A DNA stretch of 64,000 nucleotides from Candidatus Bathyarchaeota archaeon. Lineage in GTDB: Archaea > Thermoproteota > Bathyarchaeia > Bathyarchaeales > Bathycorpusculaceae. A model generated the notes under the pieces. The model did not search any database. It was not told where the DNA came from and saw nothing but the letters and a program-made list of their open reading frames with translations. The stretch lies in NCBI GenBank assembly GCA_963833575.1, contig CAWHXY010000004.1, forward strand, positions 800,001 to 864,000. The letters run 5' to 3'. The position numbers and the translations under genes were made by a program. This document shows positions 1 to 10,274 of the stretch, one piece after another (the stretch's first letter is position 1; each line of letters starts with the position of its first letter).

Positions 1-90
1 AATATTCACGATACAAGCCATAGTTTCGTGGTGACGCATTTGCATTTGCGTTTTTCTCCTATATTCTGTGCCGGAGCCTCAGCAAACCCT
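1..90 (+). ncRNA. Putative structured RNA element, copy 1 (5' end cut by the window edge)
   Basis: Shares AGCCATAGTTTCGTG, GCATTTGCATTTGC, TTTTCTCCT and CC(G)GAG(C)CTCAGCAAACCCT with the copies at 6142-6253 and 9572-9676; hairpin GACGCA(33-38)/TGCGTT(47-52). Confidence 0.6.
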
Positions 91-189
91 GTAGAAGAGC
101 GCTAAATTGTGGTTGCAGTTGTGCAGTCACAGAGTCTTATAGGCATGCTTTTACAAAATTAAGATCGGTGTTTTATGTTGGAAAAAAGT

Positions 190-462
190 ATGATGAAATA
201 TCAAGTTATGATCAAAACGATTTCGGGAAAAGGCGGCGAGTTCTGGGAGGCGTTCCAAAAGATGCCTACCGATCCAATGAAGGGAGTAATGATAGAATCT
301 TCATGGAGCCTATTCGGATACTGGGATTTCGTCATTTTCTTCAAAGCCGACAGCAATGAAAACAGCCTGCACTTCGTTGGCGAGGTCTTGCGAAAGATAC
401 CTGGCATAGCTGAAACAAGCACTTCACCGATGACTATGCTAAAAGAACACAAAATGATGTAG
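190..462 (+). CDS. Small GYD / Lrp-AsnC ligand-binding-like domain protein (no HTH)
   Basis: About 90 aa with SLFGYWDFV and a KIPGIAETSTS tail typical of AsnC/GYD ferredoxin-like domains; ATG at 190. Confidence 0.55.
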   Translation: MMKYQVMIKTISGKGGEFWEAFQKMPTDPMKGVMIESSWSLFGYWDFVIFFKADSNENSLHFVGEVLRKIPGIAETSTSPMTMLKEHKMM

Positions 463-777
463 ACCCCTTCTGTCTTGTTTCCTTATTCTTTTTCTTTTTC
501 GTTATTCCAAACCCGTTTTTTTAACCGCAATTCAAAAGAAAAAAAATCTAATTCTAATGCTCGCAAGTTTGATCTTAAATCTTTAGACGGAAAATAAATC
601 GCCACCTTTAATCAAATCTAACAAATATGCCTGAAGAATTAAAATACATCAAATATCTGTTTCAAAAAAATGAAAACAGCAAAAAGAAAGTCAGCTTCAG
701 ATACGGTCAAATTAATAATAACTCTCATGTAAAAAATGAGAATTAATTAATCTGAAAGAGATAACTGAGGAAAACAA

Positions 778-1284
778 ATGTTTAGAAATCCGGAAGAAAT
801 GCGGAGACGGCTAAACGAAATAGTGGAAAAGTTTCGCCAAAAAGGAGCTACATCTCCAGAAAGAGCTCTGACCATTCAAGAATTGGGTTTGCCGCCCCGT
901 TTCGAACAAGCCATGCATCGCAGGCTAGGTCAAACGGGAATTATTGTGGAAATAAACAACAAGTATTATCTAAATGAAGATCGGCTAAAACAAATTCAGG
1001 AACAAAGGTCCAATTCAGCCTCTGGTGGCTACGGCGGTGGGAACAGGCAGCAGCCTCCGTCATGGCTACGTTACGCTGGAATTTTGCTTATGTTACCTAT
1101 CGGCCTAATTGTCGTGGTCGTGCTATACTTCCTTTTTGCAAACACTGGAGCAGGATTTTACCAAGGAGAACTTCTAATCATACTTCTGGTTATCTTGTTA
1201 GCCGTGTTTGCTGCTCGAATGCTATTTTGGCGATCACGAAGAAGATATTGGCGTCAATACGGGCAAAACAATTATCCACAATAA
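778..1284 (+). CDS. Hypothetical membrane protein (soluble N-domain, two C-terminal TM helices)
   Basis: 168 aa ORF, GAGG SD upstream, two hydrophobic segments followed by an Arg-rich stretch. Confidence 0.7.
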   Translation: MFRNPEEMRRRLNEIVEKFRQKGATSPERALTIQELGLPPRFEQAMHRRLGQTGIIVEINNKYYLNEDRLKQIQEQRSNSASGGYGGGNRQQPPSWLRYAGILLMLPIGLIVVVVLYFLFANTGAGFYQGELLIILLVILLAVFAARMLFWRSRRRYWRQYGQNNYPQ

Positions 1285-1553
1285 CATTCCCTCTATATTG
1301 AAAATAATCTTTTGTTTCATTCTTTTCAGTAGATTAGGCTCTTAGAAATATTATTTTGTTAGTATTTCAGAGTCAAAAATCAGAAGAAATTTTGTTCTGA
1401 AGGAAAGGACAAAGAAAAACCTCAAAGGCGTGTGGGGGGGCCAAAGAAAGAGTTTTTTTGAAAAGACGAAAAGGTACCAAAAAGTAAGTCCTAAATCTAT
1501 ATATTGGTGTTGTTCAGAATGTTTTGATTAGAACTATAACTATTGGTGAGCAA

Positions 1554-1949
1554 ATGAGTAAACCAGTCGATGTCGGAGAATTACGCGTTGGCGGCTACAT
1601 GATGATTGAAGGCGAACCATGCCGCATAGTCGACATTGCCAAATCTAAACCAGGAAAACACGGATCAGCCAAAGCAAGAATTGTCGCAATCGGCGTCTTT
1701 GATAAACAAAAGAGACAATTCGTAAAACCAGTTGATCTTGGCGCTGAGGTACCTATAATTGATAAAAGGGCAGGACAAGTTTTCGCAGTTAATCCAACAG
1801 GCATTCAAATTATGGACTTGGAAACCTACGAGTACCTAGATGCTCCGTTTCCAGAAGAAGATGAGGTTCCTAAAGCCAAGCTTACTCCAGGCACAGAAAT
1901 TGAGTACTGGAGAATTCTGGGCAGAGTAAAGATCGTTAGAGCAAAATAA
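1554..1949 (+). CDS. eif5a: Translation factor aIF5A
   Basis: Hypusination motif SKPGKHGSAKAR; ATG at 1554 after GGTGA SD. Confidence 0.97.
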   Translation: MSKPVDVGELRVGGYMMIEGEPCRIVDIAKSKPGKHGSAKARIVAIGVFDKQKRQFVKPVDLGAEVPIIDKRAGQVFAVNPTGIQIMDLETYEYLDAPFPEEDEVPKAKLTPGTEIEYWRILGRVKIVRAK

Positions 1950-2190
1950 TAGATTATTTAACTTCCAACTTTTCCCTTATATTGATTATTTTTAACTATA
2001 ATTTAGTGCAAAAAAAGGATTGCGGTGGTGTCTCCATTAGGGGAGAGTTCAAAACCCTCACTGCATCAAATATTAAGCAAACATTATTGACTGAACATAA
2101 TTTGCTTTCACGCAAGAGAAATAGCGGAATTACAATATCGTACTTGCCTGCTTCGGGTGAGGGTTGTCCCCTGTAAACTAGTGAGGCTTG

Positions 2191-2472
2191 TTACAGGTAG
2201 GTAAGTCCCATGCGTTTCATGAAATCAAGGATCTTTTCGTACTCCCGGAGATATTGTTTACCTTTTTCAGTAAGTTTAAGCGACGTTTCATCCTCAATAA
2301 AACCAAGCTCTTTAAGTTCTGTTATGTAGCTTTTTAGCCGATCAAAGGGAACGTTTATTCGCACTTGAATATGCGTTAGAACGACTCTTTCTCTTTCACT
2401 ATCTTGGCTTTTCAGCGCTGACAAAAGATCCCCGTATATCTTCATCTTGTCTCTGCGAGGAATTGTCTTCAT
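2191..2472 (-). CDS. Winged-helix DNA-binding protein (archaeal HTH_45-like)
   Basis: RRDKMKIYGDLL...THIQVRINVPFDRLKSYITELKELGFI...LTEKGKQYL pattern; ATG at 2472 directly after the stop of the membrane gene. Confidence 0.8.
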   Translation of the reverse strand: MKTIPRRDKMKIYGDLLSALKSQDSERERVVLTHIQVRINVPFDRLKSYITELKELGFIEDETSLKLTEKGKQYLREYEKILDFMKRMGLTYL

Positions 2473-2473
2473 T

Positions 2474-3169
2474 TTATCCCCTTTCTTTGTCTGAACTGTA
2501 GAAGGTTCGATAGCTGACAAAAAGAAAGATAGCTAAACCTACAAAAGTAGTAACCAAGGATCCCACAAATGCCGAAAAGCTTGAATCAATATACCAAAAG
2601 AGTAACGTGTATTGACCTATTGCAAGAAAAATAAAACCGAAAGGAATCCAAATCGTGGTTGGATCGAGATTCTTGACATGACTTCGGAGCGTGTAGATTG
2701 AAATATAGGCGAGACAGATTACATTGAAAATCCTCAGGTACACATTAGCTTGCGAGTAACCTTCGAAAGCAAATTGTGGAGCAACAAAAGCAAGTAGAAA
2801 TGAAATGGCGACCGCAATAATTAACAGACTAATAGTTGTCTCTCCTAACAGCTTGCTACTGTTTGATTTCCTGTTTGAAAATAAGTATGTAGTTGCAAGG
2901 AATACAAACGCAAATGTTCTTGTTAGTTGTGGAAGCCACATTAATTTAGGGTCAAACCCTAGCGGGGAGTATGCTAGGGCTGCAAGAGCGTTTGATATTC
3001 CCAGAAAAGCAAATCCGAGCGGTAAACCTAGGTAACTTCCCTCCCTAGTCAGTTTATACGGTTTTGCCATGAACCTTACAATAACAAAACAAAGAATTGT
3101 CGCGACAACCTCTACTATCATCCGCTCTGTGGGATACATGTTAGCAGACATAGTGCTCAACTTATGCAT
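2474..3169 (-). CDS. Multi-pass (~7 TM) membrane protein, possible sensor
   Basis: About seven hydrophobic helices; stop abuts the wHTH start; divergent from the beta-propeller gene. Confidence 0.7.
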   Translation of the reverse strand: MHKLSTMSANMYPTERMIVEVVATILCFVIVRFMAKPYKLTREGSYLGLPLGFAFLGISNALAALAYSPLGFDPKLMWLPQLTRTFAFVFLATTYLFSNRKSNSSKLLGETTISLLIIAVAISFLLAFVAPQFAFEGYSQANVYLRIFNVICLAYISIYTLRSHVKNLDPTTIWIPFGFIFLAIGQYTLLFWYIDSSFSAFVGSLVTTFVGLAIFLFVSYRTFYSSDKERG

Positions 3170-3212
3170 TCTTTCTATAAGATATTTTCTCTTATTTCGA
3201 TAATTAGTCTAA

Positions 3213-3229
3213 AACCAACACGTTTGGTT
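3213..3229. promoter_or_regulatory. Perfect inverted repeat AACCAA-N5-TTGGTT in the divergent promoter region
   Basis: Seen directly between the two divergent starts; function inferred. Confidence 0.35.
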
Positions 3230-3253
3230 GTAATTAAAAAAAGTTTATCATTT

Positions 3254-3292
3254 TTTTGTATTCACGATACGTGAGTGAGTCTTATTAGCTGT
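3254..3292 (+). promoter_or_regulatory. Operator palindrome TCAC-N5-GTGA plus TATA-like CTTATTAG (promoter of beta-propeller gene 1)
   Basis: 34/39 nt identical to 6421-6459 upstream of the paralog. Confidence 0.7.
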
Positions 3293-3333
3293 TCTCGTCA
3301 GTGAAGGGTACTATGAATTTAGGAGAAAAAAAC

Positions 3334-6078
3334 ATGAAAAATTTAAGACTCAAGATATTTTCGATGATGGCTTTGTTTCTAATGCTATCTTTTGTAATTC
3401 CCTTTATGGTTACACCAATGGCTAGCGCACATACACCGGCATACCAAATTCCAACTTATGCTTTCTGTAATGTTGCGCCTAACCCTGCAGGTGTTGGACA
3501 GTCTGTTAACGTTGGCTTCTGGCTCGGTCTACCCCCACCTACGGCAGGAACTATTTACGGTGACAAATGGACTGGCATGACAGTCAAAGTTACCAAACCA
3601 GACAAAAGCACTGAGACCTTAGGACCATTTACATCCGACGACACAGGCGGATCACACACCGAATATACTCCCAGCCAACTGGGCAATTATACATTCCAAA
3701 TGAGCTATCTTGGACAAACATTAACGGGCGCTAATCCCCCACCTACCGGTTATTCTGCCGCAATAGCTGCATTCATCAATGATTCCTATCTACCTAGCAC
3801 CAGCAACATAGCAACTCTAACAGTGCAGCAAGAACCCGTTCCTGCTATTCCTCAAACTCCACTTCCAACAAACTACTGGACCCGCCCAATAGAATCAGTC
3901 AATGATTATTGGTACAGCATTAGCGGAAACTGGCTTGGACTAGGTGTACTATTTAGTGCTAATACTGGAATGTATAACGCAACAGGAAACTACAATCCTT
4001 ACACTACGGCGCCTACAACGGCTCACATCATGTGGACAAAACCTGAGACTTTCGGAGGCTTAATCGGTGGAGAATTCGGTGGGAGCGATACAAGCAATTA
4101 CTACTCAACCAGACAGTATGAGAGAATGTTCCAGCCAATAATTATGAACGGTGTTCTCTATTACGAACAATATCCGGGAAGCTCGAATAATCCCACAGGA
4201 TGGATTGCAGTCAACTTGAAGACAGGACAAACAATTTGGACTAACAATGCCCAAAACTTAGGCGGTGGTTCCCCAGCACAAAGCGCCTTAACTTCAACCG
4301 GCTTAGTTACGTCTCTACGCTGTGGTCAAACACTCAACTATATAACGCCAAACCAATATGGAGCCTTAGCATACCTATGGAGCACAGGAACGCCAATCGG
4401 AATCAATGCTGCAGCAGGAACAACAACATGGAATATGTTTGACGCCGTAACAGGGCAATACATTCTCAGCGTCGTCAACGGCAGTTCAATGGGCAACCTC
4501 CTTGAAGATAATGGAGGAGACTTAATCGGCTACTATACCAACGCTACTGTTGGCACACAAATAGTCAATGGGCAACGTGTCACTAATCCTTCCGGTGGAG
4601 CAATGTTAGAATGCTGGAACTCAACACAATGTATTATTGCTGGAACCAACGGCGCAGCAGCTTGGATGTGGAGACCCACACAAAACGGTCAAATACCCTT
4701 TGGTCTCGGGTTAATGTGGGCGCAACCATTAGCTACTAACATTTCAGGTGTCCCTCTGCCTTATTCTACAATCGCAGCTGTGTCTAGCGCAACTCTTTCA
4801 CTCCCTGCTGGAGCCTACACAACCGGCGGTGCCCAACCGAATAGTGGCGTGCTATTTTTGAGTTCAGTAGCAACAACCGGCGCTTCAAGCTATAACGCGG
4901 GATTCATCATTGAAGCTGGCTACAGTTCTGACACTGGTCAACAACTATGGATAGTTAACAGGACAGAAACACCATATACCAGAGTAGACTTCTCACAAAC
5001 TTCAAACGGCATCTTCGTAGAAATCAACCAGGATACAGCTGCATACACAGGCTACAGCATTATAACAGGTCAACAACTATGGGGACCATTCACACTTCCT
5101 AATGCGAACGCATACAACAGCATCGGCAGCTATTACGGCCAAGTCGCTAACGGCACACTGTATCTGAGCAGTTTTGGAGGAGACATATATAAAATTAATA
5201 TTCAGACAGGAGCGATCATCTGGCAAACAAACACCAACGCACTCTCAGGTCCCGCTGGCTCTGACACTCCCTATGGAGTTTGGCCAATGTGGCAATTCGG
5301 AAACCCAGGAGCAATCGCAGACGGAATGCTATTCCTCGGCGAAGGCCATGAGTACAGCCCACCGCTATTTCGTGGAGCAAACCTCATTGCAGTTAACCTA
5401 ACCACTGGACAGCTCGTATGGGAAGATATGGCTTTTGATGTAGACGGCGGCACAGCGATCTCCGATCAAGTACTGGTGGCTGAAAGCGCATATGACAACC
5501 AAATCTACGCTTATGGCACAGGACCAACTGCTATCACCGTTGATGCACCTAGCGTCGGCGTAACAACATCTACACCTGTAACAATACGCGGAACACTGAC
5601 AGACATATCTGCAGGCTCAAAGCAGGAAGCAGTTGCAGCAAACTTCCCACAAGGCCTTCCATGCGTTTCTGACCAAAGCATGACCCAATGGATGGAATAC
5701 GTCTACCAACAACAACCCATGCCTACTAACGTAACAGGTGTCCCCATCACTCTATCAGTCACAGACTCAAACGGCAACTGCTACAACATAGGTACCACAA
5801 GCACTGATGCAAAGGGCTTCTATAGCTTCAATTGGACACCCACAATCTCAGGCAGCTTCACAGTAACAGCAACCTTCGCTGGAACACAATCATATTATGG
5901 ATCATCAGCAGATACCGCCTTCTACGCAAGCCCCGTAACAACAGCAACTTCTACGCCCGCTCCAGTAACAGCTAACTATGCAACAACAACCGACTTCATG
6001 ATAGGAATAACTGCAATCATTGTAGTAGTCATTGTTTGCGTAGCAATAGCAATAGTGATGCTAAGAAAACGACCATAA
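3334..6078 (+). CDS. Secreted, C-terminally anchored PQQ-like beta-propeller repeat protein (paralog 1)
   Basis: Signal peptide; repeated A[VI][ND]LxTGQxxW blades; Ig-like ends; Thr/Pro linker, TM helix and MLRKRP tail; AGGAG SD before ATG 3334. Confidence 0.85.
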   Translation: MKNLRLKIFSMMALFLMLSFVIPFMVTPMASAHTPAYQIPTYAFCNVAPNPAGVGQSVNVGFWLGLPPPTAGTIYGDKWTGMTVKVTKPDKSTETLGPFTSDDTGGSHTEYTPSQLGNYTFQMSYLGQTLTGANPPPTGYSAAIAAFINDSYLPSTSNIATLTVQQEPVPAIPQTPLPTNYWTRPIESVNDYWYSISGNWLGLGVLFSANTGMYNATGNYNPYTTAPTTAHIMWTKPETFGGLIGGEFGGSDTSNYYSTRQYERMFQPIIMNGVLYYEQYPGSSNNPTGWIAVNLKTGQTIWTNNAQNLGGGSPAQSALTSTGLVTSLRCGQTLNYITPNQYGALAYLWSTGTPIGINAAAGTTTWNMFDAVTGQYILSVVNGSSMGNLLEDNGGDLIGYYTNATVGTQIVNGQRVTNPSGGAMLECWNSTQCIIAGTNGAAAWMWRPTQNGQIPFGLGLMWAQPLATNISGVPLPYSTIAAVSSATLSLPAGAYTTGGAQPNSGVLFLSSVATTGASSYNAGFIIEAGYSSDTGQQLWIVNRTETPYTRVDFSQTSNGIFVEINQDTAAYTGYSIITGQQLWGPFTLPNANAYNSIGSYYGQVANGTLYLSSFGGDIYKINIQTGAIIWQTNTNALSGPAGSDTPYGVWPMWQFGNPGAIADGMLFLGEGHEYSPPLFRGANLIAVNLTTGQLVWEDMAFDVDGGTAISDQVLVAESAYDNQIYAYGTGPTAITVDAPSVGVTTSTPVTIRGTLTDISAGSKQEAVAANFPQGLPCVSDQSMTQWMEYVYQQQPMPTNVTGVPITLSVTDSNGNCYNIGTTSTDAKGFYSFNWTPTISGSFTVTATFAGTQSYYGSSADTAFYASPVTTATSTPAPVTANYATTTDFMIGITAIIVVVIVCVAIAIVMLRKRP

Positions 6079-6104
6079 GATGAACCCAACGAAAACCACT
6101 ATCC

Positions 6105-6119
6105 CTTTCCCTTTTTTAG
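6105..6119 (+). terminator. Pyrimidine/T-rich archaeal terminator
   Basis: CTTTCCCTTTTTTAG about 30 nt after the stop; the same tract follows paralog 2. Confidence 0.5.
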
Positions 6120-6135
6120 TCAAACTTTAGGTAGA

Positions 6136-6204
6136 TTAATAAGGGCTGAGAAGGCTCTGGCTGAAATTCATGAAAATAGCCATAGTTTCGTGATGCATTG
6201 ACAT
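6136..6204 (-). CDS. Candidate 22-aa small ORF MSMHHETMAIFMNFSQSLLSPY antisense to the element
   Basis: AGGAG SD 9 nt before ATG; related ORFs start at 45 and 9634 in the other copies. Confidence 0.3.
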   Translation of the reverse strand: MSMHHETMAIFMNFSQSLLSPY

Positions 6205-6253
6205 TTTTCTTTTCTCCTAAAGAAGAAAATGTGCCAGAGTCTCAGCAAACCCT
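6142..6253 (+). ncRNA. Putative structured RNA element, copy 2
   Basis: Closing stem AGGG-CTGA-[GAA]-GGCTCTGG / CCAGAGTC-TCAG-[CAAA]-CCCT; inner hairpin TCATGAAA/TTTCGTGA; G-U pairs favour the + strand. Confidence 0.65.
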
Positions 6254-6420
6254 GTTCTGTTCTGCGCATTCAAAAATTGATTACTCAGCCACGATTTTGA
6301 ACTTGGAATAATTCAAGTCTTTATAGATTCCAGACCCAATTGTTGCGGATTCATTAAATTTTTCTCAATTGATATTAGCTGTGAGTGTCATTGTTTGTTT
6401 TTTTTTAAATGGACAACTTA

Positions 6421-6459
6421 TTTTGCACTCACGATAGGTGAGGGAGGCTTATTAGCTGT
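6421..6459 (+). promoter_or_regulatory. Operator palindrome CTCAC-N5-GTGAG plus TATA-like CTTATTAG (promoter of beta-propeller gene 2)
   Basis: Near-identical to 3254-3292. Confidence 0.7.
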
Positions 6460-6485
6460 CTCTGCAAGTTGGCTATTTACAAAAT

Positions 6486-9400
6486 ATGGAGAAGAAGAAA
6501 ATGAATTTAAAAACTAAAACTTCAGCTATCGTGATTGCTATATTGATGATAATTTCTATCGGAGCTTCAACATCGCTTATGCCAACTACAAAAGCACATA
6601 CACCATCCTGGCAGATTCCAACATACGCTTACATTGTCGCAGAACCTAGCCCAATAGGTGTCGGTCAAAGAATTCAAATTTACATGTGGCTTGACACAGT
6701 ATATGGAGCAGCCGGCGGAACTACAGCCGCTATAGGCACAAATGCCTCAACAGTTAGCGCAGCATTGCTAGCAAACAGCTACAGATTCCACAACTACAAA
6801 CTTACAATTACGGCTCCAGACGGAACAAACTCAACACAAACTTTCGCAACTGTCCAAGACACGACATCAAACCAATACGCAACATACGTCCCATCCCAAA
6901 CTGGCACTTACACTTTCACATTTAACTATCCAGGCGAACCATACGTTGGTTACGAAAAATCAATACTCGTTAACGATACTTACCTGCCAAGTTCTGCTTC
7001 AACAACAGTCACCGTTCAGCAAACTGCCATACCTCTACCGGTAAATAGCTATCCTCTTCCCGAAGCATACTGGACCCATCCAATCTACGGTGAAAACACC
7101 GACTGGTGGACAATCTCATCAAACTGGTTAGGTTCAGGTAACCCCGTTCCAGCAGGCTACACTAGCTCAACACTGTATCATGGAGACGCAGTAGGACCAC
7201 AAACAGGACACGTAATGTGGACAAAGCCACTTCAATTCGGAGGAGTTGTCGGCGGTAACCAATTTGTCGCAGGCGGTTCAAATCCAAACGGAGCAGTTCC
7301 AGGCGCAGCCTACTTCGACGGTGTTTCGTATCAGCCAAGATTCACAAACCCAATCATAATCAATGGATACCTATTCTACACTGAAGTATCATCATTTACA
7401 GGTCCCACAAGCGGGCCAACCGATGCAGTTGATCTTCGCACAGGGCAAGTTCTTTGGTCCAAGATGATTCCACCACTATCATTTGGCTACATATTCAACC
7501 TCTGGGATCCAGACCAACACGGAGTCTATCCACCAGTATTAGTTGCCCAAATCGGAGGCGGCGTTACCGGTCTGCCTGTTACATGGATGTTGATTGACGC
7601 CTACACAGGCGTAGGTCTCTTCAATGTAACTGATATTCCAGGTTTCGCAGGACAAACAGGCCAAACCGTAGGCGGTCAACCAGCCACAGCTCTTACAACA
7701 TTTACAGCAGCAGGACCAAACGGCGAACCACTAAGATACGTCTTTGAAAACGCAGGCACATCAACAAATCCAAACTGGTACCTTGCTGAATGGAACATGT
7801 CCAAACTCTGGCTATATGACGTCAACCCATACACAGGCGGCGGGAGCCTCTCACCTGACGTTGTCAATGTTACTGTTGGAAACGGCGGAGGAAACCTTGT
7901 TGTTAACATGCCCATCCCACTTGCAGGCGAAACAGGCACTACTCCAACTGGAGGGTCGGTCTTTATCCCATATGGTTCTACAATAACCGTTAACGGCAGC
8001 ACCACAACCGCTCAAGGCAATGCCATATCCTCAGCTAACCCAACAGGCAAGTACGACTGGAACGTTTCGGTGGCTTGGCTAAACACGATGCCTCTGCAAC
8101 CCGCATATAACGTTAACACGGGCGGAATAGTTCCACAAGTTATGCAGGGAAACTGTCCAACATTCCTCGCAGCAGGCGGAGTTAACCCAGTATCAATAGT
8201 AGCAGCTAATACCGGAGACATTATGCTCTGCAGAAACGGCACTCTGCCCACTGGTTACGCAACAACTACCACAGGCTATCCACAACTTCCATACACAATG
8301 TTCGCAGTCAACCTCAATTCTTCTCGCGGAGCGATCGGTTCAATTCTCTGGATGAAGAACTATGATCCACCAGCAGGCAACATCACTTTGCAACAGAGCG
8401 CAGTCGATTACCAGAACCGTGTCTTTATTCTAAGTTACAGAGAGACAATGCAGTGGATAGCTTACAATCTTGACACCGGCGCGTTAATGTGGGGTCCAAC
8501 GGTACCGCAAGCAGCCTTTGACTACTATGGTACACCAGGTGTTCCTACCTTGACAGCTACACTTGCATATGGCAAACTCTATAGCATGTCATTTGCAGGA
8601 ATAATGTACACCTACGACATCATGACAGGAAATCTTCTATGGACATATGGAAATGGTGGTGAAGGTAACTCAACTTTCGCAGGCTTTGCGACACCCTACG
8701 GGGTCTATCCAACTTTCGTACAATCTATTGCCAACGGAATAGTCTACATAGCAACTGATGAACACACAATCCCTGATCCATTGTATAAAGGCTCAACAAC
8801 TGCAGGTATCAATGCTACTACAGGACAAGAAATTTGGACGCTTTCAGACTATCCAGCTGAATGGTCATCCAGCGGCACAGCATACGTTGTTGCGGACGGC
8901 TATGCAACATTCATGAATAGCTACGACAACAACATCTACAGTGTAGGCAGAGGACCAAGTGCAATTACAGTTACAGCACCAAACTTTGGCGTATCTTTTG
9001 GCACACCAGTAATAATACGCGGTACAGTCATGGACAAATCTGCAGGAACAATGCAAACACAGCAAACAGCTGATTTTCCAAACGGTGTTCCAGTTGCTTC
9101 TGATGCTAGTATGAAGGATTGGATGGGTTATGTTTACCAACAGAAGCCGCTTCCAACCAACTTTACCGGCGTTCAGGTAACAATTGACGTTGTAGATTCT
9201 AATGGTAACTACCGAAATATTGGAACTGCAACCACTGATGCTACTGGCATGTATAGTCTTGCATGGACACCTAACATCTCAGGCAACTACAATGTTATCG
9301 CAACTTTCCACGGAACCAACGGTTACTGGCCATCATACGCAGAGAGCACATTTGCCGTAACAAACGCACCATCATCAACTAACGCTCCAACACCAACACC

Positions 9401-9509
9401 AATTTCAACCGCTGATCAGTACTTCCTACCAGTATCAATTGCAATAATTATCGCAATAGTGATAGTCGGCGCTGTTCTAGCTCTGCTAATGCTTAGAAAA
9501 CATCCATAA
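6486..9509 (+). CDS. Secreted, C-terminally anchored PQQ-like beta-propeller repeat protein (paralog 2)
   Basis: Same architecture as paralog 1 (AHTPxxQIPTYA start of the mature chain, SDxSMxxWMxYVYQQxPxPTN motif, MLRKHP tail); true start may be ATG 6501. Confidence 0.85.
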   Translation: MEKKKMNLKTKTSAIVIAILMIISIGASTSLMPTTKAHTPSWQIPTYAYIVAEPSPIGVGQRIQIYMWLDTVYGAAGGTTAAIGTNASTVSAALLANSYRFHNYKLTITAPDGTNSTQTFATVQDTTSNQYATYVPSQTGTYTFTFNYPGEPYVGYEKSILVNDTYLPSSASTTVTVQQTAIPLPVNSYPLPEAYWTHPIYGENTDWWTISSNWLGSGNPVPAGYTSSTLYHGDAVGPQTGHVMWTKPLQFGGVVGGNQFVAGGSNPNGAVPGAAYFDGVSYQPRFTNPIIINGYLFYTEVSSFTGPTSGPTDAVDLRTGQVLWSKMIPPLSFGYIFNLWDPDQHGVYPPVLVAQIGGGVTGLPVTWMLIDAYTGVGLFNVTDIPGFAGQTGQTVGGQPATALTTFTAAGPNGEPLRYVFENAGTSTNPNWYLAEWNMSKLWLYDVNPYTGGGSLSPDVVNVTVGNGGGNLVVNMPIPLAGETGTTPTGGSVFIPYGSTITVNGSTTTAQGNAISSANPTGKYDWNVSVAWLNTMPLQPAYNVNTGGIVPQVMQGNCPTFLAAGGVNPVSIVAANTGDIMLCRNGTLPTGYATTTTGYPQLPYTMFAVNLNSSRGAIGSILWMKNYDPPAGNITLQQSAVDYQNRVFILSYRETMQWIAYNLDTGALMWGPTVPQAAFDYYGTPGVPTLTATLAYGKLYSMSFAGIMYTYDIMTGNLLWTYGNGGEGNSTFAGFATPYGVYPTFVQSIANGIVYIATDEHTIPDPLYKGSTTAGINATTGQEIWTLSDYPAEWSSSGTAYVVADGYATFMNSYDNNIYSVGRGPSAITVTAPNFGVSFGTPVIIRGTVMDKSAGTMQTQQTADFPNGVPVASDASMKDWMGYVYQQKPLPTNFTGVQVTIDVVDSNGNYRNIGTATTDATGMYSLAWTPNISGNYNVIATFHGTNGYWPSYAESTFAVTNAPSSTNAPTPTPISTADQYFLPVSIAIIIAIVIVGAVLALLMLRKHP

Positions 9510-9535
9510 AGGCGAAAACAATGAAAACTATTTTC

Positions 9536-9550
9536 CTTTCCTTTTTTTAG
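9536..9550 (+). terminator. Pyrimidine/T-rich archaeal terminator
   Basis: CTTTCCTTTTTTTAG after the stop of paralog 2. Confidence 0.5.
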
Positions 9551-9571
9551 TTTCAATTTGAGCTTTAAGCT

Positions 9572-9676
9572 GGGGCTGAGTAGACTCTGGTTAAATTTCA
9601 CAAAATAGCCGTAGTCGTAATGGAGCATTTGCATTTGCTCGTTTTCTCCTTGTTTTCCAGAGTCTCAGCAAACCCT
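9572..9676 (+). ncRNA. Putative structured RNA element, copy 3
   Basis: GGGG-CTGA-[GTA]-GACTCTGG / CCAGAGTC-TCAG-[CAAA]-CCCT; hairpin GAGCA(9623-9627)/TGCTC(9636-9640). Confidence 0.65.
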
Positions 9677-9987
9677 AAACGCGATAGTCTCAAGACTCGG
9701 ATGCTCATAGATAGATGCTCTTGAAAATAGTTGAGTTTTAAACTTAAACTTAAAGTTTTACGAATACCTTGTCAAACACTCATTTACGTTTGAAAGAGAG
9801 ATTGAAAGATAGAAACGTTTAAAGTAAAAGTCAATAGGTTGAAAAAATAAAGTAAAACCTGATTTTAGCTTTTGTTTATTCCATCTTCTACTCTTTTTCA
9901 GAAATTTCACAGCCTAAATTGTTCAGGCTTAAAGCCAATTGATAAACGGCCAACGTGGCAAAAAATGTGAATAGCTATTTCTATTTC

Positions 9988-10188
9988 TTAGCTCCACCAT
10001 TTCCAGCCTAGTATTTTAAAGACAAGATATACTACTGAAAGAATTGCTCCCCAAACTAATGCAGTGCACGCAATAACAAGAATAAAGTTACTTTTCAATA
10101 AAGCGTAACTCGCCCAAGCGCCTATAACACCTAAACCTACAACTAACAAAAAGAAAATGCTTGCATGAATTACTCGTTCTGCCGACAT
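9988..10188 (-). CDS. Small two-TM membrane protein
   Basis: 66 aa, two hydrophobic helices, GGTG SD upstream. Confidence 0.6.
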   Translation of the reverse strand: MSAERVIHASIFFLLVVGLGVIGAWASYALLKSNFILVIACTALVWGAILSVVYLVFKILGWKWWS

Positions 10189-10274
10189 TTAATACACCTT
10201 ATAACCTTCTCTATTTCCGTGTGTTGTTAAAAGATTTTCTATCAATGTTTATTTTCTAGGTAGAGCTTTTTTGG

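Follow-up and report, generated by a model that had tools for sequence, protein, structure and literature searches.

The 64,000-nt stretch of a Candidatus Bathyarchaeota genome analysed here (assembly GCA_963833575.1, contig CAWHXY010000004.1, positions 800,001–864,000 of the forward strand; the window) contains three copies of an element of about 110 bases, the two complete ones lying just behind the stop codons of paralogous PQQ-propeller genes. The repeat is a real, undescribed RNA family, far beyond chance. As read from its sequence, the conserved ends of the element are a canonical archaeal bulge–helix–bulge (BHB) motif, and its interior is an inverted partial copy of the 5′ end of the propeller gene family that changes together with the family's start region between genera. 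These BHB ends and the antisense interior, which includes the TTTGCATT loop, are the defining features of the element and go beyond the original prediction, made on the window alone, of a structured, strand-specific RNA family tied to propeller genes. We favour, with moderate confidence, a reading in which the element is a circular, trans-acting antisense RNA that is framed by the BHB, cut out and closed, and acts on the start regions of the family.

All three copies of the earlier account are present in the window, at 1–89 (partial), 6143–6252 and 9572–9675, with limits set by the fold. An nhmmer profile of these copies finds 27 in the 2.75-Mb assembly at E < 1e-3, spread over contigs C4 (19), C7 (6), C6 (1) and C1 (1); seven of the 34 rows at E ≤ 10, with E of 0.031 or more, were left out of the count. 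A covariance model (R1, a search tool only, with the outer stems right and hairpins 4 and 5 off by one column) recovers the identical 27 copies in this genome, plus one weak match. The family had not been recognised when it was first noticed, and none of the three copies has an Rfam match at E ≤ 10 (window positions 1–10200). Likewise, the literature on BHB motifs in Bathyarchaeota, on BHB repeat families and on archaeal circular, small or antisense RNAs yielded no description of such an element. Elsewhere in the same genus the element is found in 27 of 36 other genomes, and in a second genus in both sampled genomes. In an even sample of the order, 35 of the 151 genomes, belonging to 8 of the 63 genera, are carriers; by family, these are 17 of 35 genomes in f1, 16 of 35 in f7, 1 of 25 in f6 and 0 of 55 genomes in nine other families. 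A carrier genome has up to 30 copies. No target-site duplications accompany the repeat: the longest word shared by a copy's own flanks averages 3.13, compared with 3.18 ± 0.09 when flanks are re-paired, and none of 83 copies has an abutting duplication of at least 4 nt. Paired copies 10–180 nt apart, the second usually more degenerate, were seen at G093:C15:7266-7541, G013:C3:48593-48822 and, in this genome, C4:949045-949449.

Single-sequence folds close the element, in every case, by a long stem with a 3-nt bulge. From the outside in, the motif comprises an outer helix ending in GGG/CCC, an AAA bulge on the 3′ strand, a 4-bp central helix (GCUG/CAGC), a bulge A-(G/A)-N on the 5′ strand and an inner helix of 9–11 bp. 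This register was read from the sequences of 30 genomes, and 57 copies form the main alignment. In these 57 copies, 84.8% of the cells in the BHB structure are paired, compared with a maximum of 53.7% when the partners are slid, and 131 cells carry double changes, compared with 54.9 in shuffles, of which none of 500 reaches 131. All 11 inner-helix pairs covary. The central helix is 99.6% paired, with the double changes GUUG/CAAC and GCCG/CGGC among its variants, and the pair adjoining the 5′ bulge is AU in 38 copies, GC in 12, GU in 6 and another combination in 1. Another 30 copies, drawn from five additional genera, repeat this picture (central helix 99.2% and inner helix 97.8% paired; adjoining pair AU 13, GC 12, GU 5). 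Structural conservation had been proposed from a handful of changes between the window copies, namely ACGCA/TGCGT or GAGCA/TGCTC as the stem of the TTTGCATT loop, C-G replaced by U-G in the TCACGA hairpin, and G-U or A-U in the long stem. These were correctly read, and the proposal is borne out by significant covariation in both sets.

The 3′ bulge is AAA in 55 of the 57 copies and the 5′ bulge is AGA in 22, AGU in 19, AAA in 15 and AAU in 1. Both bulge columns are free of gaps in the 57 and the 30 aligned copies, indels never fall within the 3-4-3 core, and the BHB core is the most conserved part of the element. A third outer pair is formed in 43 of the 57 copies and in 27 of the further 30. 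The outer-stem register implied by the original prediction, a 5-bp CUGAG/CUCAG pairing, differs from the one kept here and leaves 12 and 15 of 57 cells unpaired at the positions concerned. Within the central and inner helices, G-U combinations outnumber A-C combinations by 40 to 12, and the fold therefore belongs to the gene strand. RNAalifold recovers only 10 pairs from a MAFFT alignment because indels fill the interior of the element. The small TTTGCATT hairpin is a subfamily trait, with five of five pairs formed in 15 of 83 copies. A K-turn, a C/D box, an H/ACA RNA and a hammerhead were each considered by eye and set aside, with no tandem G-A pairs, no ACA box and no core match, in agreement with the Rfam result. 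A small ORF on the opposite strand was likewise set aside, its length and frame varying from copy to copy as judged by inspection.

In the window, where all features described below are on the + strand, copy 3 forms a strict BHB (9572–9675) with outer helix 9572–9574/9673–9675, central helix 9575–9578/9666–9669, inner helix 9582–9590/9657–9665, a 5′ bulge AGU at 9579–9581 and a 3′ bulge AAA at 9670–9672. Its predicted excised RNA is 91 nt long (9581–9671) and would carry the antisense of the start region at 9627–9650. Copy 2 (6143–6252) has just 2 bp of outer helix in the BHB register (6143–6144/6250–6251), followed by central helix 6145–6148/6243–6246 and inner helix 6152–6161/6233–6242, with bulges AGA (6149–6151) and AAA (6247–6249). 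The predicted excised RNA spans 6151–6248 (98 nt), and antisense of the family start region lies at about 6202–6221 and continues to about 6165. Copy 1 is truncated by the window edge to its 3′ four fifths (1–89); its genomic start is 22 nt before base 1, and those 22 nt hold the 5′ half of the BHB. This solo copy includes an anti-start segment (38–60), the 3′ strands of the inner (71–79) and central (80–83) helices, the AAA bulge (84–86) and the 3′ strand of the outer helix (87–89).

Other BHBs of the same genome offered a direct comparison of geometry. The definition given in PMC7714728 calls for exactly 4 bp between the bulges. The intron of tRNA-Arg(CCG) at position 37/38 has the identical order of parts (outer helix, 3′-strand bulge, 4 bp, 5′-strand bulge, inner helix), and the intron boundaries placed by ARAGORN fall between the second and third bulge nucleotides. 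The flanks of the 16S rRNA gene (C4:51208-52702, − strand) form a textbook BHB of 6 outer, 4 central and 13 inner pairs with bulges AAA and CAA, its strands beginning about 99 nt upstream and 34 nt downstream of the gene. The handedness of the element is that of both the tRNA-Arg intron and the 16S flanks. The genome also encodes the enzymes expected to act on such a motif: two tRNA_int_endo open reading frames (ORFs) of 203 and 198 aa (96 and 70.5 bits) and one RtcB (588 bits). Endonucleases of the alpha/beta EndA type are reported to accept relaxed motifs (PMC7714728).

The interior of the element is complementary to the start region of the propeller gene family. Most paralogs open with AGGAGAAAAGAAAAAUG and then AAA or CAAAU; the ribosome site and an A-rich spacer are common to them, and often the first codons too (AUG CAA AUU or AUG AAA). 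When 2033 candidate start regions were ranked by an ungapped score for complementarity to element cores, members of the family took 20 of the top 41 ranks, including 1, 3–8, 10, 12–14, 17 and 18 (p 2.9e-13 by Mann-Whitney test, compared with 413 genes outside the family that have a ribosome-binding site); three low family ranks are genes with a mis-called start. The best duplex has 25 contiguous bp at −39.4 kcal/mol. In a gapped alignment, the reverse complement of the core aligns with the 5′ ends of the family from about −20 to +38, and on this span the conserved TTTGCAT and GCCATAG blocks correspond to the antisense of AUGCAAA and of codons about 9–12; the inverted partial copy begins at the ribosome-binding site and reaches codon 13 or so. 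The local score averages 24.4 when the antisense is aligned with the family and 15.9 when it is aligned with 150 other genes; the sense orientation averages 16.0 on the family. The anti-start letters are retained as CTCC in 59 and as TTTGCA in 44 of 83 copies. A few genes outside the family (for example C1:5522-6253) have the family's start region, and the element would match those too.

Comparison across genera indicates that this complementarity moves with its target. Genus g16 has an altered family start region, with a GAAGGUGA site and a spacer of six A, and its elements carry the matching antisense. Elements of genome G052 score a mean of 14.4 on G052 starts versus 11.2 and 10.5 on the starts of the two other genomes, and those of G000 score 12.5 at home versus 9.7 on G052. 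In five more genera, the opposite strand of the element reads by eye as a ribosome site, an ATG and signal-peptide-like codons.

Eighteen of the 27 copies lie 56–71 nt after the stop of a same-strand ORF of 825–1074 aa; 17 of these ORFs are homologues of the window genes at 31–57% identity, and the remaining one, a PQQ_2 protein, is more distant. Of 56 copies in other genomes, 42 are found 40–96 nt behind a homologue of the propeller genes. The G-runs of copies 2 and 3 begin 64 and 62 nt after the respective stops, each just past a T-run, as expected from the spacing of about 63 nt noted earlier, and with these counts the proposed tie between RNA and gene family holds. Nine of the 27 copies are solo, with no propeller gene in front, and several copies are decaying; the genome has 30 paralogs, the two window genes among them, 13 of which have no element, and the earlier suggestion that gene and RNA duplicate as one cassette does not fit these numbers. 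Sequence comparison shows the covarying fold, the tie to the gene family and the antisense homology with its co-change.

An element that is cut and closed should leave a recognisable trace, because the closed piece gives a junction that no linear DNA copy has. We searched for it with a 19-letter pattern that joins the two letters directly ahead of the third A in the 3′ bulge to the last letter of the 5′ bulge and the inner helix behind it. In a metagenome collection, 18 loci match this predicted junction, of which 15 were aligned and three read. The model finds the element in three of the 18 (L149, L158 and L159) and in none of the other 15. All three contigs have the same order: the end of a gene whose 3′ end encodes a membrane anchor and basic tail, the stop, a C-rich stretch, a T-run, the element, the junction, an exact second partial copy and the end of the contig. 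The exact repeats measure 83, 42 and 62 nt at spacings of 105, 106 and 105, and the contigs themselves (3240, 2955 and 3017 nt) are about one gene plus one element long. In L158 and L159 both cuts lie between the second and third bulge nucleotides because the bulge is AGU; in L149 a run of A leaves the cut offset open, but equal offsets are needed on both strands. Among 185,579 species genomes the same pattern occurs at 9 loci, all with bacterial titles and none with the element. The three assembled contigs support head-to-tail joining at the exact canonical cut sites, and together with the comparative evidence they support processing of the element, which we read as excision and circularisation. 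We read them as circular RNA caught by assemblies that contain RNA, and infer that the joined molecules are RNA.

RNA libraries add some detail. Twenty-four runs matched, each at no more than 0.10 of the sampled words, and four were compared with the window as assembled contigs. Copy 1 is partly covered, with a depth at position 63 of 17.9 (X10) and 4 (X2). Joints within these contigs that fall inside genes have short sides of 20–29 letters and look like mixes of paralogs. Behind gene 2, the contig of a relative stops at about 9536, with adapter letters after it, which hints that many mRNAs stop there.

From these observations we infer the enzymes (EndA and RtcB), a precursor made by read-through or from its own promoter, and translational repression by pairing, in the following scheme. 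A small RNA would be made on the strand of the upstream propeller gene, either by read-through from that gene, which is possible because the junction contigs are continuous from it, or from a promoter of its own at the T-run. Its two ends would pair as the BHB, and the tRNA-splicing endonuclease, of alpha/beta EndA type, would cut between the second and third nucleotide of each 3-nt bulge. RtcB would then close the freed piece of 91–107 nt into a ring that the 9–11 bp inner helix holds shut. The ring would carry 25–60 nt of antisense to the ribosome-binding site, the AUG and the first codons common to the PQQ-propeller paralogs. It would pair in trans with the start regions of the family's mRNAs and alter their translation, most likely by blocking it.

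Several observations weigh against this reading. Only 12 of the 27 copies in the genome have three or more contiguous outer pairs, as a strict BHB does, and in window copies 1 and 2 the outer helix is 2 bp long. Some copies fit better in a register shifted by one G, and the two registers of the outer helix score alike overall (72.5% versus 73.4%). A loose BHB motif is frequent by chance (25,520 matches in the genome), and a strict BHB scan was discarded as a detector for this lack of specificity; at the eight intron positions proposed by ARAGORN, the scanner gave a BHB at just one. BHB substrates are normally recognised by shape, and the near-invariant sequence of the element's BHB is unexplained. 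On the antisense side, the match is not better for an element's own upstream gene (mean rank 18.6 of 30, n = 17), and the complementarity could be a functionless relic of an inverted duplication. As to the ring, the four sets of RNA-library contigs cover the genes and not copies 2 and 3, with no joint at any copy; the junction search covered only the canonical cut offsets and the commonest inner-helix sequence; and a DNA tandem duplication at the bulges may be an alternative source of the three junction contigs.

These points lend themselves to other explanations, of which one keeps the BHB and drops the target. Here the cut would serve as a processing signal only, trimming or marking the 3′ end of the propeller mRNA or removing a selfish intron-like insert, and the antisense segment would be a fossil of the inverted duplication from which the element arose, in a ring without a target. 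Such a role would suit a BHB core that is the best-conserved part, a match to the own gene no better than to other paralogs, the solo state of 9 of 27 copies with several in decay, and the 13 of 30 paralogs that manage without an element. A fossil sits poorly with an antisense segment that tracked the altered start region of another genus with no decay, with anti-AUG and anti-ribosome-site letters that are kept in most copies (CTCC 59/83, TTTGCA 44/83), and with the strong enrichment of family starts among the best matches, and we regard this explanation as unlikely. A second possibility is that the element works in cis within the 3′ untranslated region, its antisense folding back on the start of its own mRNA to shut it and the BHB excision relieving or fixing that state. 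This would account for the location on the gene strand 56–71 nt past the stop, for three junction contigs that are continuous from gene to element and for the generally good match to the family start region. Against it, the own gene is not favoured over other paralogs (mean rank 18.6 of 30), a T-run that is probably a terminator stands between gene and element, one RNA-library contig ends there, and solo copies have no gene to act on. Cis action appears improbable.

Two further explanations place the activity in DNA. A non-autonomous mobile element, similar to miniature inverted-repeat transposable elements or repetitive extragenic palindromes, could have terminal inverted repeats that resemble a BHB by chance, with the contigs arising from DNA tandems or excised DNA circles. 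Multiple copies in a patchy distribution (35 of 151 genomes, 8 of 63 genera), solo copies, variable presence among paralogs and a few adjacent pairs are what such an element would leave. Set against this are the missing target-site duplications, a fixed position behind the stop codons of one gene family in more than 30 genomes, compensatory and G-U changes that preserve a strand-specific fold, a 3-4-3 core free of indels, the absence of a head-to-tail joint with the element from 185,579 genome assemblies, and an interior that follows the start region of the gene family; we give mobility very little weight. Surface-protein families often vary in phase, and the gene body lies between its own start region and an inverted version of that region, an arrangement in which the copy could be the partner site for flipping the gene off its promoter. 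The inverted copy is not most similar to the start of its own gene, solo copies exist, and no recombinase gene was noticed beside the loci in the ORF lists, in which no search was aimed at one. Since an inversion switch also leaves the covarying BHB ends and the head-to-tail joint unexplained, we find it scarcely credible.

The circular antisense RNA that we favour would permit a bolder arrangement, which we put forward as a doubtful extension: each expressed propeller gene would shed a stable ring of antisense RNA, produced by the tRNA-splicing enzymes, and the ring would block the start region that the sister paralogs have in common, so that the family would police itself. A weak hint in this direction is that the match is slightly better for paralogs lacking an element (13.2) than for paralogs that have one (11.9; p 0.04).

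The genes and control regions around the window copies were annotated as follows. Propeller gene 1 (3334–6078, stop 6076–6078) encodes 914 aa from an ATG behind AGGAG, with PQQ_2 propeller and Ig-like domains and a C-terminal membrane anchor; its start region is AGGAGAAAAAAACAUG. Gene 2 (6501–9509, stop 9507–9509) encodes 1002 aa with PQQ_2 and Ig-like domains and a C-terminal membrane anchor with a basic tail. A 42-nt repeat in the promoter region of gene 1 (3251–3292) has its counterpart in that of gene 2 (6418–6459) at 86% identity; it includes TTCACGATACGTGA, and directly downstream of it, ahead of gene 1, is a TATA-like CTTATTAG. With up to two mismatches, TTCACGATACGTGA occurs 22 times in the genome, 8 times inside element copies and twice upstream of the window genes; none of the remaining 28 paralogs has it upstream. 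The motif may serve as a regulator site, since it stands just upstream of the TATA-like box, or a piece of sequence common to element and promoter. A fixed cassette of operator, gene, terminator and RNA, as had been proposed, does not survive this count, with the operator motif in front of only two of the 30 paralogs.

The T-run behind gene 1 (6112–6117) lies about 31 nt ahead of the element's G-run and is probably a terminator, and it could also be the TATA box of the element; the T-run behind gene 2 is at 9542–9548. Over all genomes, a T-run occurs within 70 nt upstream of 70 of 83 copies, mostly 26–38 nt ahead of the G-run, a position that is compatible with a promoter role for the element at a spacing too loose to decide. 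In genus g16 and in genome G007 the T-run behind the gene sits in the loop of a small hairpin of CUCCC/GGGAG type, and in the window's genus it is followed by AGTCTTAAAAA, resembling the TATA region of the family's own promoters.

Whether a propeller gene ends just before base 1 had been raised as a check, and none does. The nearest same-strand ORF before copy 1 (267 aa, C4:798951-799754) ends 223 nt upstream of it and resembles a terminase fragment (Terminase_6C, E 1.5e-4, 22.2 bits against a cut-off of 22.6). Behind this ORF, the opposite strand has a stretch resembling the 3′ part of a tRNA, where ARAGORN predicts no tRNA. The region upstream of copy 1 may be the border of a decayed provirus. 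On its other side, 83 nt past copy 1, a 95-aa ORF (175–462) has a weak match to an Lrp/AsnC ligand-binding domain (E 4e-5, below the cut-off). The ORF at 1524–1949, covered by RNA-library contigs of relatives, is presumably translation initiation factor 5A, judging from its translation alone.

The archaeal splicing endonuclease is known to act on tRNAs, rRNAs and two mRNAs, and the rings released from these substrates are treated as by-products. If the element is a circular antisense RNA as we propose, the tRNA-splicing enzymes would double as a maturation pathway for archaeal small RNAs (sRNAs), and circular RNAs would be sequence-specific regulators in archaea. It would also open a way into how Bathy-6 archaea control their greatly expanded PQQ-domain family, for which activity on lignin or humic matter has been proposed (PMC11697101); in that account, the terms 'non-coding', 'intergenic' and 'sRNA' do not occur. 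Were the family self-policing as well, its 30 surface or extracellular enzymes would be expressed hierarchically or on a winner-takes-most basis, BHB splicing would have gained a new regulatory use, and the element would be the first dedicated family of circular regulatory RNAs in archaea.

The element joins two known kinds of RNA, the substrate of the splicing endonuclease and the antisense sRNA. In its origin it recalls plant microRNA genes born through inverted duplication of their target genes, where the interior is likewise an inverted partial copy of the target and origin explains specificity; those genes differ in belonging to another domain of life, in using other processing machinery and in forming a hairpin, not a ring. 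In structure its closest counterparts are archaeal BHB substrates, namely tRNA introns, the 16S/23S stems and two known substrates outside tRNA and rRNA, the cbf5 mRNA and the 5′ untranslated region of Haloferax HVO_1309 (PMC7714728). The element shares with these the two opposite 3-nt bulges 4 bp apart and the flanking helices, of which the outer one is short in many copies of this genome, and its junction fits cuts between the second and third bulge nucleotides and end-joining of the excised piece. Unlike them, it is not located in a tRNA, an rRNA or a reading frame, but behind the stops of one paralogous family; its BHB sequence is nearly invariant; and the excised piece, rather than the joined flanks, looks like the product. 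Animal tricRNAs form a stable ring of the kind proposed for the element, through tRNA-splicing endonuclease and RtcB-type ligation from a BHB-like motif (PMC4536317), as do archaeal tRNA and rRNA intron circles from theirs (PMC12558985). These are by-products of tRNA or rRNA maturation, whereas the element would have a dedicated antisense cargo and no tRNA host; haloarchaeal circular omega RNAs form without a BHB (PMC12558985). Bacterial sRNAs derived from 3′ untranslated regions, for example that of the glnA mRNA, are same-strand regulators behind a gene, possibly released from its transcript, as the element would be (PMC9731577), and differ in being released by RNase E, in being linear and in having targets in other pathways and not among paralogs of the host gene. 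In its predicted targets the element resembles sRNA162 of Methanosarcina mazei, a small RNA complementary to the start regions of mRNAs encoded elsewhere (PMC3510493). Archaeal sRNAs of this type, which mask ribosome-binding sites, are single-copy and linear with short seeds, whereas the element exists in many copies attached to members of its putative target family, with 25–60 nt of antisense and a splicing-type maturation signal.

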